64,000 nt of DNA from Anaerotignum sp. GTDB lineage: Bacteria > Bacillota > Clostridia > Lachnospirales > Anaerotignaceae. Positions 58,457 through 63,999 of this stretch are shown piece by piece (the stretch's first letter is position 1; every line of letters begins with the position of its first letter). The notes beneath the pieces are model-generated. The model did no database searches. It was not told where the DNA came from and was given only the letters and a program-made list of their open reading frames with translations. The position numbers and the translations under genes are program-made. The stretch is taken from contig NZ_DAOUQB010000010.1 of assembly GCF_030625865.1 (NCBI RefSeq), positions 966 to 64,965 on the forward strand. Direction: 5' to 3'.

Positions 58457-58662
58457 GAAATTCCTCCTTCCTAAATAACTATACATGATTTTTTGACCCA
58501 TGCTCTCAAAATCCATCATCAAATTCTCCCTTGTCACGACATGTCCTCGAAAAAAAGGACAAAAAATCTTTCTTTCAGACACGCACGTAAGAAAAACTTA
58601 TAACATACAATAAATCTATAACACGATTTCACTGGTTTTTTGAAAATTTTGGGGGTGAGTAT

Positions 58663-59325
58663 GTGCTAGTTTTTTTTATGGCTTTGCCATGTTTGTTTGC
58701 CTTTTCTTCTGCCGGGGCCTTTCCGAAACCATTGTCAAAAGAAGAGGAAGCCTTTTATTTAAACCTGTATCAAACAGGAAATGAAGCGGAAAAGAAAGAA
58801 GCAAAGGATAATCTGATTCTTCATAATCTTCGGCTGGTAGCCCATATCGCAAAAAAATATTCGGGCAACGCAAGAGAACCAGAAGAATTAATCTCCATCG
58901 GAATAATCGGTCTAATCAAGGCTGTCGATTCATATAACACAGAGAAAAATGTAAGACTGGTTTCTTACGCAGCCAAATGTATTCAAAATGAATTACTCAT
59001 GTGGCTAAGAAGTGGAAAAAAATTTCAAAACGATATATCTCTTCATGAACCCATTGGTACTGACAGAGATGGCAACGAAATCGTCATGCTGGATATCATA
59101 AACAGCGACAATCCTGATTTTGTAGATACCATTGATTTTTCTATTAAATCCGAAAAAATGCTAAATGCCGTAAAAACCGTTTTATCCCCTAGAGAAAGGA
59201 CAGTTATCATACTCCGATACGGTTTGATGAATCAAGATATTCTAACCCAACAAGAAATCGCTGAACGATTAGGAATATCCCGCTCTTACTCTCCTGATAT
59301 TTTAGGGCTAAACTTTTTTAAATAA
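58663..59325 (+). CDS. sigK: pro-sigma-K, 5' segment only (gene interrupted after Tyr209 in region 4.2)
   Basis: A hydrophobic pro-sequence is followed by AFPKPLSKEEE, HNLRLVAHIAKKY and ..QQEIAERLGISRSY. Homology to sigma-K (..ISRSYVSRIEKRAL..) then stops, and 11 unrelated codons (SPDILGLNFFK) run into a stop. Confidence 0.8.
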   Translation: MLVFFMALPCLFAFSSAGAFPKPLSKEEEAFYLNLYQTGNEAEKKEAKDNLILHNLRLVAHIAKKYSGNAREPEELISIGIIGLIKAVDSYNTEKNVRLVSYAAKCIQNELLMWLRSGKKFQNDISLHEPIGTDRDGNEIVMLDIINSDNPDFVDTIDFSIKSEKMLNAVKTVLSPRERTVIILRYGLMNQDILTQQEIAERLGISRSYSPDILGLNFFK

Positions 59326-59362
59326 TATGCAGGAATAACCCAATATTTTTATTCCTGCATAT
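59325..59362. terminator. perfect 14-bp hairpin between the two stop codons
   Basis: ATATGCAGGAATAA-cccaatattt-TTATTCCTGCATAT. It spans exactly from the stop of the sigK fragment to the stop of recombinase 1. Confidence 0.65.
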
Positions 59363-60930
59363 CACTTGGTAAAGACATCTTGAAAATTCCAAAGAATTTT
59401 GATTGCTCCATTTTGTTCAATGAAAATGACATCTACAAAAACGTCAACCAGTTCCCTTGTTAAGCTTGGATAAGGGAATATCTTATTTAGCCTTAACATA
59501 TCCTCCTGATTTTTGGGGAAATCGAATTGAGAATAACCTGATTTTTCCTGCTCCAGCAAAAGTGCACTTTCTATTTTCTCGTAAAGGTCTTGATATCCAT
59601 TTTTTTTCATTAAAAAATCATCTTTTCCCAGCTTGTTTTCTTTATAGGCTTCATATAACTCAATCTTAGCCAAACCTATTTTCTTTAATTTTTCTTCCTG
59701 TTGTTTTATAAGCTTTTTATTTTTTTGAATTCTTTCTTTCGATTGTCCATTAAAATATTCTTCTAACTCACCAGCATTACTGCTTACCATCAGTTTATTT
59801 AAATAAAACAATATTGCATCCTCTATGCTATGTTCCGCAATTTTTTCACCATAACAACGAACCCCATTGGTAAACACTAACTTTGGACAACGATATACTG
59901 CTACAGAACCTTTGCTCCCATTTTCCTCTGATATTTTCCGTGACATCATATAATGGCAGCCACCGCATCTTACTTTTTTCCATAAAGGATAAGGCTTTTC
60001 TTTTTTCCTTGGCTGATAATTTCTTCCTTTTGCCTGAACCTGTTCATAAATATCTCTTCCAATAATTGGTTCATGGGTATTCGGTACTATAATCCATTCT
60101 TGTTTCGGCACCTTTTTATCTTCTCTACTTCCTATTTTTTTAGGTTTTACCTTTCCATACACCGAATCCCCCGCGTATCTTTGATCATTTAGTATCCTCC
60201 CTATTGTTGCAGGGCTCCATAGGAATTGTTTGCTAACACCGGTGCAGAAAAAGGGCTCCTTTCGCATTTTACGAAGCTTCAAAGGGCTTGGTATCTCTTC
60301 AGAATTAAGATAACGGGCAATTTCAATCTGAGGGATACCCGCCAACGCCATTTTAAAAATCCTTTGCACAACAGAGGCCGCCTCTTTGTCTATCACAAGT
60401 TTCTGCTCTTTGGATTTTCCATAGCCATACGGCGCAAAAGCTGTAATAAATTTGCCTTGTTCTGCCTTTGACCGTCTTACGCTTGTAATCTTTTGAGATA
60501 AATCCTTGCTATAAAGATCATACATTAAATTTTGAAAGGATATCCCCATAAAATCACCGTTACCAAAAGCCCTACCGCTATCAAAATTATCATTGATTGA
60601 AATAAATCGAACACCCCAAAAAGGGAAAACCTGCTCAATATAGTTTCCAACTTCAATATAATTGCGGCCAAAACGAGAAAAATCCTTAACCATGATACAA
60701 AAAACCTCTCCGTTTCTGGCTTTTTGGAGCAGTTTCATTACACCTGGGCGGTTAAAGTTTGTTCCGCTATAACCGTCATCGCAAAACTCTAATATTTCAT
60801 ATGATGAAAGATCCCTATGATGAAGTATGTAATGCTGTATGAGCTCTCTTTGTCCTTTCACACTAACACTCTCTTCTGGATTTTCATCTTCATCAGAAAG
60901 GCGAAGATAAATCCCTATTTTTTGTTCCAT
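59362..60930 (-). CDS. large serine recombinase 1
   Basis: MEQKIGIYLRLSDED.. (catalytic Ser), ..DDGYSG..RPG..VKDFSRFGRNY.., a Cys-rich zinc-ribbon region, a coiled coil and a DUF4368-like C-terminus. The ATG at 60930 follows GGGGGAGGGG. Confidence 0.85.
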   Translation of the reverse strand: MEQKIGIYLRLSDEDENPEESVSVKGQRELIQHYILHHRDLSSYEILEFCDDGYSGTNFNRPGVMKLLQKARNGEVFCIMVKDFSRFGRNYIEVGNYIEQVFPFWGVRFISINDNFDSGRAFGNGDFMGISFQNLMYDLYSKDLSQKITSVRRSKAEQGKFITAFAPYGYGKSKEQKLVIDKEAASVVQRIFKMALAGIPQIEIARYLNSEEIPSPLKLRKMRKEPFFCTGVSKQFLWSPATIGRILNDQRYAGDSVYGKVKPKKIGSREDKKVPKQEWIIVPNTHEPIIGRDIYEQVQAKGRNYQPRKKEKPYPLWKKVRCGGCHYMMSRKISEENGSKGSVAVYRCPKLVFTNGVRCYGEKIAEHSIEDAILFYLNKLMVSSNAGELEEYFNGQSKERIQKNKKLIKQQEEKLKKIGLAKIELYEAYKENKLGKDDFLMKKNGYQDLYEKIESALLLEQEKSGYSQFDFPKNQEDMLRLNKIFPYPSLTRELVDVFVDVIFIEQNGAIKILWNFQDVFTK

Positions 60931-62332
60931 ATTCCCCTCCCCCATCAAGCATTTTTTCAATTTCGTCAGTTGCCTTATTATACTCAGATTGATATGGGAA
61001 GGAAATACAGCAATGATTATTTGTTACAGTAATTTTTTCTATTAATAAACGGCATTTCTCACCGTTAAATTTTTCTGCATTTTCTAAAAAAGTTTTCCCC
61101 CCGGAATCAATTAACAATAGAAGATGGCTTTTGCATATTTGTAAAACCACCTCCTGTATTTCATCTTCTCTAATAGAACGGGCGGTGCACCCTCCTTTTT
61201 TCAGATATTTTTTGGGACAATTAAAAAAATGGCCTACCAACGTACCATCCTTGCGATAATACCCTCCGTCCCGTTGTAAAGCACTACCACACGCACCGCA
61301 AAATAATAAGCCCCGAAAAACATTCTCTGTCCTCTGTCTATGTGCATATTTACTTGCGTTATTTTTTTTCTGTAATGCAGATTGTTTTAAAATATCCTGT
61401 ACTGCATAAAATATTTCCCGGGATATAATAGGAGCGTGAGTATCTTCTATGATATTCCATTCTATTGGGGGAATAACATCTTTCGTTCCCCCTTTATACA
61501 AAGCCTTTTGCGTTTTACGCTCCACAAGGCACCCCATATAACAGTGGTTTTTCAAAACATTTGTAACCGTTGAGCCGTGCCATAGGGCTGATTCTTTTCC
61601 ATCTGGAAACCCTTCCAGAAAACGAAATTTCATTTGTGTTGGTACACACATCTCGTTCAGCCTTCTGGCAATTCTTGTAGGTCCTACCCCTTCTTTGCGC
61701 CACTGAAAAATACTTCTTACAACTTCAGCTTGCTCATTCTCTATCTCCAGTTTGTATGGATCTGTTTTTGATTGAACATAACCATAGGGTGGGATTCTGT
61801 TCATAAACTTACCGTTTTTTTTCTTCACATCAATGGCAGTGCTTACTTTTCTTGAAATATCCTTTGCATAACTATCGTGTAAAATGGATTTCAGTGAAAC
61901 CATTAAGCCATCCTGATGGTCGGCTAAAAGACTATCAAAATTATCATTGACAGATATAAACCGCACACCATTTTTAGGAAATATATTTTCCAAGTAATTC
62001 CCTGTTTCTAAATAATTTCTGCCAAAACGAGATAAATCTTTGACGATAATACAATTGATCTTTCCTGTTTCCACATCTTGCATAAGCCTAAAAAATTCCG
62101 GTCTGTGGAAATTTGTACCTGTTTGTCCATTATCTATATAGGTATCAATAAAAATCAAATCTTTATGTATCTCCATGTATTTTTCTACCAGTAATATTTG
62201 GTTTTCTATGGAGGAATTATCAAGGTTTGTGTCCTCAACGGAGAGCCTTGCATAGATAGCAGAATAATATTTTTGCCTCTCTTTCTTCTCCGTTACACCC
62301 ACCTGATTTTTTTTTCTGCTTTTTCTTGCCAT
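60893..62332 (-). CDS. large serine recombinase 2
   Basis: ..AIYARLSVED..DNGQTGTNFHRPEF..VKDLSRFGRNY.., a recombinase domain and a Cys cluster. RBS is AAGGAGGA. The 3' end overlaps recombinase 1 by 38 nt. Confidence 0.85.
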   Translation of the reverse strand: MARKSRKKNQVGVTEKKERQKYYSAIYARLSVEDTNLDNSSIENQILLVEKYMEIHKDLIFIDTYIDNGQTGTNFHRPEFFRLMQDVETGKINCIIVKDLSRFGRNYLETGNYLENIFPKNGVRFISVNDNFDSLLADHQDGLMVSLKSILHDSYAKDISRKVSTAIDVKKKNGKFMNRIPPYGYVQSKTDPYKLEIENEQAEVVRSIFQWRKEGVGPTRIARRLNEMCVPTQMKFRFLEGFPDGKESALWHGSTVTNVLKNHCYMGCLVERKTQKALYKGGTKDVIPPIEWNIIEDTHAPIISREIFYAVQDILKQSALQKKNNASKYAHRQRTENVFRGLLFCGACGSALQRDGGYYRKDGTLVGHFFNCPKKYLKKGGCTARSIREDEIQEVVLQICKSHLLLLIDSGGKTFLENAEKFNGEKCRLLIEKITVTNNHCCISFPYQSEYNKATDEIEKMLDGGGEYGTKNRDLSSPF

Positions 62333-62355
62333 TTATCATTCCTCCTTAAGAAGAA

Positions 62356-63999
62356 TTAAAATGAATTTTCTTCTCTATAGACTGGGATTTCAGACTTCTG
62401 TACTTCTTTTTCAAACTCGTCTGTGTACTGCAATATTACCCTTACAGATTTTTTATCAAAAATGATAATATTTTCTATTAAAAGAACCAGTGTAGTCCTA
62501 TTTAACTCTGATACACTTTCATCCCCCAAAAACCATCTTATCCGATCATTGTTACAGTCATTTTTTCCAATGAATTTTCCTTTTAAATACAATGCATCTA
62601 TATTTTTTTGAATCTCACCACATATTTTTTCATAACAGGCTTTCATCTCCAAATACTCATCCTTTGTCAAAACACCCTCTCTGTAATCTTCATAAATAGA
62701 CATTTTTAGACCTTCATATCTTTCCAGTTCATCTTTTTTCCTATTTAGCTGCAATTCAACCTTTTGCTTTTCTTCTTGTTTTTTCGTTAATCTATCTATT
62801 TCTTTCATTTCCCCATCCATTTCACAAAAAAGACTCCTATGCTTTTTCAATAAGACAAGCAACATCTCTTCTATAAAATTTTCTCGAATTCGATGACTGC
62901 TACATGCATCTTTATCCTCTTTATTCTTTGAGCAAATATAATAGGCATAGGTTTTCCCTGGGGCCTTTACCGGTTTTCGCACCATATTGCTCCCACACCC
63001 ACCGCATTTTAGCAAGCCAGATAGCAAATAAAGTTTCTCATTTTCCGGTGAAGTTCTGGTATCGTTAAGCATTATTTTCTGTAGAATTTCAAAATTTTTC
63101 TTTGAAATGATAGCCTCATGGGTATGCTCAACCCGTACCCAATCCTCTTTTGGCGTTTTTATTCTTTTTTTGATTTTATAACTTAATGAGGTTTCCTTCC
63201 CTTGCAGCATGACCCCCGTATAGATTTCATTTTTCAAAATTCGATCCACTGTCATAGGCACCCATTTGGCTCTTGGATTTAATTTGAAAGGTGTATCATA
63301 TGGGGAATCATGTAACTTTTTATATTCCATGGGAGATGGCACTCCTAATTCATTCAAGGATTTCGCAATATATGTATTGTTATAGCCTGCCATACGCATG
63401 GCAAAGATCTCTTTTACGATTTCGGCAGCTTCTTGGTCAACAACCAGCTTATGTTTATCCTCCTGTGAACGAGAATATCCATAAACAGCAAATGCCCCCA
63501 CAAAATCTCCGCACTTTTGCCTTATTTTAAGTTGAGATCTTGACTTTATAGAAATATCTCTACTGTAAGCATCATTCATTAAATTCTTAAAAGGAATCAG
63601 TATACTATCCGTTTGTGTGGCATCCCGCCCAGTATCAATATTGTCATTGATTGCGATAAAACGAACACCAAGAAAAGGGAAGATTTGTTCAATATACCTT
63701 CCCGTTTCAATATAATTTCTGCCAAATCGAGAAAGATCTTTTACAATAATACAATTTATTGTCCCTATTTTTATCTCTTCCAAAAGTTCCTTAAGAGCCG
63801 GCCTTTCAAAAGTAACACCGCTATAGCCATCATCAATTTTTACACTGACAACTACAATATCCTTTTTATCTTTTAAATAAAACTCAATGAAATCTCTTTG
63901 ATTTTTTATACTATTACTTTCCAATTTATCCCCATCTTCCCGAGATAAACGCAAATATATTCCAGCTTTATACATTTTCGTCACATCATCCAAATACAT
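62356..63999 (-). CDS. large serine recombinase 3 (start at 63975, 63999 or beyond the window edge)
   Basis: ..GIYLRLSREDGD..DDGYSGVTFERPA..VKDLSRFGRNY.., a CGGCG zinc ribbon, a coiled coil and a DUF4368-like C-terminus. Confidence 0.8.
   Translation of the reverse strand: MYLDDVTKMYKAGIYLRLSREDGDKLESNSIKNQRDFIEFYLKDKKDIVVVSVKIDDGYSGVTFERPALKELLEEIKIGTINCIIVKDLSRFGRNYIETGRYIEQIFPFLGVRFIAINDNIDTGRDATQTDSILIPFKNLMNDAYSRDISIKSRSQLKIRQKCGDFVGAFAVYGYSRSQEDKHKLVVDQEAAEIVKEIFAMRMAGYNNTYIAKSLNELGVPSPMEYKKLHDSPYDTPFKLNPRAKWVPMTVDRILKNEIYTGVMLQGKETSLSYKIKKRIKTPKEDWVRVEHTHEAIISKKNFEILQKIMLNDTRTSPENEKLYLLSGLLKCGGCGSNMVRKPVKAPGKTYAYYICSKNKEDKDACSSHRIRENFIEEMLLVLLKKHRSLFCEMDGEMKEIDRLTKKQEEKQKVELQLNRKKDELERYEGLKMSIYEDYREGVLTKDEYLEMKACYEKICGEIQKNIDALYLKGKFIGKNDCNNDRIRWFLGDESVSELNRTTLVLLIENIIIFDKKSVRVILQYTDEFEKEVQKSEIPVYREENSF

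Follow-up and report, generated by a model that had tools for sequence, protein, structure and literature searches.

Until now, one recombinase and one directionality factor have sufficed to explain skin-like gene rebuilding, a textbook case. The skin recombinases are SpoIVCA in Bacillus subtilis and CD1231, which works with the directionality factor CD1234, in Clostridioides difficile, one enzyme per element as stated in the initial annotation of the present locus (PMC517825, PMC5025042). Expression of spoIVCA is sigmaE-dependent and nearly wholly SpoIIID-dependent (PMC517825), and CD1234 depends on sigmaE and SpoIIID as well (PMC5025042). The locus described here lies at the end of a 64,000-nucleotide stretch of DNA from Anaerotignum sp. 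(the window; positions 966-64965 of contig C36, in a genome of 84 contigs and 2.75 Mb). Three large serine recombinase (LSR) genes, recE (external, E; rec1), recM (middle, M; rec2) and recI (internal, I; rec3), together with a small DUF6870 gene, adjoin a split sigK. Sequence comparison indicates that this cassette is a real multi-recombinase variant of the one-enzyme skin switch. Compared by description, it shares with skin the split sigK, LSR attachment (att) sites and a recombinase gene at the element end, and it carries a box and promoter pattern matching the sigmaE/SpoIIID control documented for spoIVCA and CD1234 (PMC517825, PMC5025042). It differs in having three paralogs plus DUF6870 in place of one recombinase, in carrying genes for pyrimidine catabolism, a CoA-transferase, electron-transfer flavoprotein (ETF)/acyl-CoA dehydrogenase and pili in place of prophage-like cargo, and in the position of the split, which here follows Tyr209 in region 4.2.

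Other described systems resemble the locus in part. The gin element, which interrupts gerE in Bacillus cereus ATCC 10987, carries girA, girB, girC and girX, with GirC and GirX acting alone (PMC5595907). Both gin and the present locus appear as a non-phage element in a sporulation gene, with three serine recombinase genes and a small proven or candidate directionality factor (PMC5595907); in gin, however, girAB form an operon, girC lies apart and identity is 22–26%, whereas here the genes are tandem, recM and recI are each 34–37% identical to recE, and the family is position-conserved. Serine integrase triplets at the ends of streptococcal integrative and conjugative elements (ICEs) were described by Ambroset et al. 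2016 (PMC4701971), which, with the position-specific phylogeny below, bears out the earlier remark that such triplets occur in conjugative or transposable elements of Firmicutes. Those triplets likewise consist of three LSR genes side by side and in one orientation, placed at an end of the element and facing a disrupted target, an arrangement that the congeners match, with very short junction repeats and members that cluster as E, M and I. The Anaerotignum locus differs in its lack of a conjugation module, its sporulation-gene target and its vertical inheritance; the DUF6870 gene and its SpoIIID-like GGAC(A/G) box were not found at the single Streptococcus triplet examined. The Anabaena fdxN element, with XisF, XisH and XisI, offers developmental excision by an LSR with small accessory proteins, and XisF is the best NCBIfam match of all three proteins (88–110 bits vs a 375-bit cut-off), but that system has a single recombinase and belongs to another phylum and another developmental programme, that of heterocysts. 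For CcrA and CcrB of SCCmec, a division of labour was reportedly described by Misiura and colleagues in 2013. Likeness to this pair lies in two LSR paralogs, one operon and one att-site pair (PMC5397144), whereas three paralogs are present here, a hetero-complex is hypothetical here, and the NCBIfam CcrA/CcrB matches to all three proteins are weak (69–102 bits vs cut-offs of 700–900). No paper was found on triplets at sigK or on triplet biochemistry or function in any host.

The three LSR open reading frames (ORFs) occupy window positions 59362-63999 on the minus strand and point at the interrupted sigK (Table 1). The ORFs, their Pfam domains and the sigK break confirm the initial annotation's report of three tandem, co-oriented LSR genes at the sigK junction. 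Resolvase (PF00239), Recombinase (PF07508) and Zn_ribbon_recom (PF13408) are matched in each protein, the zinc ribbon of recE scoring 24.8 bits, 0.5 bit short of the 25.3-bit cut-off. A three-way alignment reveals that Y-x-R-L-S-x-E-D, VKD(L/F)SRFGRNY and the four zinc-ribbon Cys residues are invariant, so that the shared catalytic motifs and recombinase/zinc-ribbon regions noted at the outset stand. The long coiled-coil C-termini then ascribed to all three proteins can be kept as putative for recE and recI, which carry a long insert at this position, and not for recM, from which an internal deletion removes the region. DUF4368, suggested for checking at the same time, or another TnpX-type C-terminal domain is absent from the Pfam matches listed at E <= 0.001 for the three proteins. 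The recE start is most likely the ATG at 60930, because the N-termini of orthologs are conserved; with this start, the previously reported 38-nt overlap between recE and recM and 23-nt gap between recM and recI are both exact. Translational coupling of the three genes is likely, and DUF6870, recI, recM and recE look like one operon. Among solved structures, those nearest to recE are the catalytic domain of TnpX and SPbeta SprA. Conservation is highest in recI, which of the three also comes nearest to TndX-type single LSRs. Eight further LSR-domain matches occur in the genome (G000; contigs C74, C82, C14, C10, C6 and C77), none of them a triplet.

The interrupted gene defines the recombination site. 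Positions 58663-59325 match positions 16–213 of the 235-position NCBIfam SigK model, and homology stops after ...ISRSY, whose last codon is the TAC at 59287-59289. The missing end of 18 codons (VSRIEKKALKKLNAVLED, to the stop) sits on contig C23 at about 11940, and fusing the two parts through the att core yields an intact sigK. Together, the attL arm and the C23 attR arm make an attP in which 18–21 of 24 arm positions are paired, centred on the TA of TAC, forming an imperfect palindrome of about 50 bp that shares the 3-bp core TAC with attB. Each arm occurs once in this genome. Comparison with 12 sampled congener species and two more distant species (G008 and G011) extends the pattern: sigK is broken at the same codon in 11 of the 12 congeners, with the arm TCT(C/T)CTG(A/T)TATTATAGGGCTAAAC, and the attL element arm is kept in every split congener; these 11 species also share one conserved attL/attR pair and the cassette itself. 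The remaining congener, G003, carries a base-perfect intact sigK with the same flanks, equal to the 5' and 3' parts joined at the core; neither dihydropyrimidinase, the single cargo gene searched, nor an element-type recI was found in it. In G008 sigK is uninterrupted and the pyrimidine genes lie 230 kb away on the chromosome, and no element-type recI was found in G008 or G011. By the pairing and uniqueness of its arms, the locus is one canonical LSR site pair and not several.

As an observation on the target gene itself, the sigK promoter region (window 58457-58662) is nearly invariant across the genus, with a sigmaK/sigmaE-type gcAC-N17-CATACAATA. Upstream of it lie AGGACA(A/T) and inverted GGACATGTC / TTGTCA boxes, fitting the expected SpoIIID control.

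The cassette belongs to a wider set. Scanning the recE alignment across 185,579 species genomes yields 80 related Clostridia loci, 41 of them co-oriented triplets. In a FastTree phylogeny of 197 LSRs, a tree with long branches made without a careful maximum-likelihood search, the genes separate by position, this window's genes counted: 41 of 42 I genes, 41 of 42 M genes and 42 of 42 E genes fall in their own clades, repeating the pattern described for streptococcal ICEs (PMC4701971). Positions 1, 2 and 3 of a Streptococcus dysgalactiae triplet beside hsdS join I, M and E with branch supports of 97, 96 and 99, and TndX is the sister of the I clade; these two placements are the outcome of the proposed phylogenetic check against known recombinases. 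DUF6870 lies immediately upstream of the I gene in 26 of the 37 assessable triplets, and I+E pairs lacking M occur in other taxa. The E, M and I genes can be treated as one unit because of the overlap and 23-nt gap, the position-specific clades, the grouping of the Streptococcus genes and the upstream DUF6870. Phylogeny and gene order together mark recE, recM and recI as members of one ancient, position-conserved triplet family. Among the 80 related loci, sigK-adjacent cassettes are confined to Anaerotignum, and the neighbours of other triplets are diverse (ruvA, LysM-GH18, amidase, TIR-Mrr, kinase and others). Split sporulation genes at other triplets could not be demonstrated from the neighbours of the related loci, and no spoIVB fragment was found at the 80 loci by tblastn. 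The congeners G004, G005 and G009 hold extra full triplets at places other than sigK.

Substitution patterns point to constraint on every member of the cassette. Between the closest species pairs, the ratio of nonsynonymous to synonymous substitution rates (dN/dS) is 0.11–0.23 for recE, 0.10–0.20 for recM, 0.10–0.28 for recI (0.08–0.28 across species) and 0.13–0.27 for DUF6870, compared with 0.04–0.11 for sigK and about 0.02–0.09 for preA. By these values recE, recM, recI and DUF6870 are all intact here and under purifying selection, contrary to the possibility raised initially that two of the three recombinases are inactive; the shortened recM of some congeners is constrained as well. Between species, protein identity is 80–95% for the cargo and 83–93% for sigK, and just 42–69% for the recombinases and DUF6870 beyond the closest clade. 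In most close pairs, recombinase dS is on the same order as that of sigK and of preA, a member of the cargo; in G005–G012 it is 2–3 times higher. The low recombinase identity can be attributed to vertical descent with faster protein evolution; horizontal cassette replacement does not appear to be needed, and module exchange is possible for some pairs, including G005–G012.

The DUF6870 protein is a candidate partner of recI. Its model is confident, with a predicted local distance difference test (pLDDT) value of 83, and has no fold match in the PDB; no paper on DUF6870 was found. The model of its complex with recI scores 0.79, against 0.00 for the best control, with at least 94% contact agreement between runs and a partner pLDDT of 83–84. 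Of 80 solved complexes, 58 attain a score of 0.79, as do 2 of 110 mismatched pairs; these counts are only rough because self-made alignments were used. The predicted interface on recI comprises residues 375–394 and 502–537, which correspond to the helix that follows the zinc ribbon and to C-terminal strands on either side of the coiled coil. It is in this region that LSR directionality factors act. The modelled contacts suggest that DUF6870 may be a directionality-factor-like partner of recI.

The upstream region of DUF6870 suggests when the cassette is expressed. The spacer is unalignable between species save for one block, gAATAGGACAAGa-N-TTTTTTATATAAAT. The upstream sequence TAGGACAAG departs at a single one of 10 positions from TAGGACAAGC, the consensus for SpoIIID in B. 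subtilis (PMC11180830). An ATA lies 16–17 nt from a CATA-like -10, which is the sigmaE pattern: sigmaE promoters are recognized by ATA at -35, and the -10 is common to sigmaE and sigmaK (PMC3789822). SpoIIID is encoded in this genome. Of 33 non-redundant cassettes, 14, from several families, have a GGAC(A/G) box 51–56 nt from the start codon of DUF6870; since the cassettes are homologous, these counts are not independent. These elements point to a candidate sigmaE-type promoter of the DUF6870 operon, overlapped by a SpoIIID-like box.

A different conserved DUF6870 leader is present in 11 other loci (L051, L056, L060, L063, L067, L078, L080, L084, L087, L088 and L094). It consists of a GC-rich hairpin (CCGGGGATTCCCCGG or CCGGATCTGCAATCCGG) followed directly by CATACCAT or CATACATA, a sigmaE/sigmaK -10-like element.

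On balance, the cassette probably functions as a whole, cutting out the element in the mother cell by recombination of attL x attR, with DUF6870 as a directionality-type partner, recI and recE as the working enzymes and recM as an accessory. The operon would be turned on in the mother cell from the sigmaE-type promoter overlapped by the SpoIIID box, as spoIVCA is. DUF6870 would dock at the base of the recI coiled coil in the manner of a directionality factor, and full-length recI and recE would jointly act on attL x attR in the CcrA/CcrB manner, with recM as an accessory subunit whose own zinc-ribbon and coiled-coil part is dispensable. Excision would restore sigK, the segment being lost only from the terminal mother-cell chromosome.

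Several observations weigh against this proposal. Neither a rejoined sigK (attB) nor a circular attP junction is present in this assembly. On the regulatory side, the -10-like element of DUF6870, TATATAAAT, lacks the leading C of CATACAAT at the sigK promoter of the genus, and TAGGACAAG occurs 14 times genome-wide against 21 expected; since it is not over-represented, conservation alone argues for its function. The complex model cannot tell which of the paralogous recombinases, recI or another, truly pairs with DUF6870. In five congeners recM has just 315–346 aa and no zinc ribbon, and one complete congener genome (G009:C1 ~2239286-2240776, L021) has a frameshift in an A-rich run of recI, near codon 55, which could reflect a true pseudogene or an assembly error. 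The attP palindrome is near-perfect; one homodimeric LSR could in principle bind both halves, and a hetero-complex would not be required. Finally, in gin, the only tested three-recombinase precedent, one recombinase and a small directionality factor suffice (PMC5595907).

The last two points lead to the main rival explanation, a possible though less probable one, in which a single enzyme, either recE next to attL or the TndX-like recI, rebuilds sigK, probably with DUF6870. The other two recombinases would then do something else, for instance integrate into new hosts, act at secondary sites or carry out resolution, and would be kept through block inheritance. Such a division fits the behaviour of gin, where GirC and GirX are necessary and sufficient and girAB is silent in sporulation (PMC5595907), as it fits the homodimer-compatible attP, the absence of the recM coiled coil here and of its whole zinc-ribbon region in the five congeners, and the I+E pairs without M in other taxa. 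Idle passengers are, however, hard to square with an E/M/I order kept from Streptococcus to Clostridia, and all three genes are open with dN/dS of 0.08–0.28, with no sign of element movement and no second copy of an att arm. That the locus is a relic, with excision lost and sigK permanently broken or sporulation gone, is improbable: the short recM of five species, the frameshifted recI and the missing excised junction would suit decay, but purifying selection acts on the recombinases, on DUF6870 and on the two parts of sigK, the att arms and upstream promoter block are conserved, spoIIA, spoIIID and spoIVB are present, and one congener carries the base-perfect rejoined sigK. A nested set of insertions that arose independently, with separate att sites and a cognate recombinase apiece, which the initial annotation had named as the outcome that would overturn it, is very improbable and was rejected. 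Element length does vary (22 kb vs 36–38 kb, a type IV pilus block being present in the longer versions) and several other LSR genes exist in the genome, but the overlapping or abutting genes leave no room for internal att sites, 41 triplets from different families show the same gene order and fall into position-specific clades, a single attL/attR pair with unique arms gives one palindromic attP, and the pilus block has no recombinase.

For the proposed joint action of the cassette, the sigK system offers a clean sporulation phenotype, one defined attL/attR pair and natural variants (short recM, I+E pairs), which make the long-open question of why there are three recombinases directly approachable. 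A three-paralog cassette appears to do the job of skin, and streptococcal resistance-carrying ICEs share the cassette type. DUF6870 and the SpoIIID-like box provide concrete candidates for the control of directionality and timing. A broader generalization is tentative and on present evidence doubtful: DUF6870 + I-M-E cassettes may be widespread sigmaE/SpoIIID-driven mother-cell excision machines of spore-forming Clostridia, in which paralogs form a heteromeric complex that includes its own directionality factor and reconstitutes sporulation genes. In Anaerotignum such a machine would have become fully domesticated, and each sporulation would excise a block of ordinary host metabolism and pilus genes from the mother-cell chromosome.

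Table 1. Features of the split sigK locus and the adjoining element (window coordinates unless a contig is named)
Feature	Position	Strand	Description
sigK 5' part (pro-sigma-K)	58663-59289 (ORF to 59325)	+	ends at Tyr209 within region 4.2
attL	59265-59313	.	host half-site to core TAC 59287-59289; element arm TCTCCTGATATTTTAGGGCTAAAC 59290-59313
recE (rec1)	59362-60930 (ORF to 60960)	-	external LSR, 522 aa, full domain set and putative coiled-coil region
recM (rec2)	60893-62332	-	middle LSR, 479 aa; catalytic, recombinase and zinc-ribbon domains; without coiled coil
recI (rec3)	62356-63999	-	internal LSR, 547 aa, full domain set
DUF6870 gene	C36 65010-65255		81 aa, immediately upstream of recI, just past the window end
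Genes on C36 past the window			DUF6870 (81 aa), PreT/PreA-like dihydropyrimidine dehydrogenase, M20 amidohydrolase, NCS1 permease, dihydropyrimidinase, MerR/GyrI regulator, nitroreductase

The element spans at least 27 kb over several contigs in this genome. In four congeners with element-spanning contigs, the sigK 3' end lies 22–38 kb from the 5' part, and the interval holds the same cassette and cargo, also encoding a family III CoA-transferase, ETF and acyl-CoA dehydrogenase. On the C23 side, up to attR, the element carries type IV pilus genes that include a 1907-aa pilin-like protein. A Pfam scan of called ORFs, covering both element ends in this genome and nearly all of one 38-kb relative, detects no genes of phage type and none for conjugation (relaxase, coupling protein, type IV secretion). 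Of the three kinds of cargo considered initially (phage, ICE or other), phage and ICE are accordingly rejected and the third stands, the scanned ORFs being metabolic, regulator and type IV pilus genes. The cargo appears to consist of native-looking metabolic and pilus genes. Gene content and the close agreement of cargo and sigK identities indicate that the element is non-phage, non-conjugative and vertically inherited in Anaerotignum. Such elements can thus carry native-looking host pathways instead of selfish genes.

Minor observations concern the cargo and two related loci. The genes at L001:6047-15827 (C36 past the window), on C76 and in L019/L020 (G005) resemble one coherent catabolic route, in which pyrimidines are reduced and their ring is opened to give beta-alanine (PreT/PreA-like, dihydropyrimidinase, M20 carbamoylase, NCS1 permease). 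The family III CoA-transferase, ETF and acyl-CoA dehydrogenase belong to the same catabolic cargo, and the genes co-diverge with the host. In the outgroup G008, most of these catabolic genes (PreT/PreA not among them) lie about 15 kb from the gap genes, at the 230-kb distance from sigK given above. The 1907-aa protein (L002:5904-11627, C23, minus strand) combines a prepilin methylation motif at its N-terminus with GLUG repeats and an M26-like region; it ends the type IV pilus cluster, occurs in the 36–38 kb elements and is missing from the 22-kb ones. The S. dysgalactiae triplet beside hsdS (L115; NZ_CP044103.1, 3471-8097) comes from a 23-kb 'plasmid' deposit, lacks a DUF6870 gene and has frameshifts that break at least two of its three recombinase genes. 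At L047:11618-12933 in Lachnospiraceae, and also in L048 and L050, a LysM + GH18 gene with the architecture of a spore-cortex/coat hydrolase converges on recE, and in the L047 family a 51-codon ORF lies between the two genes.

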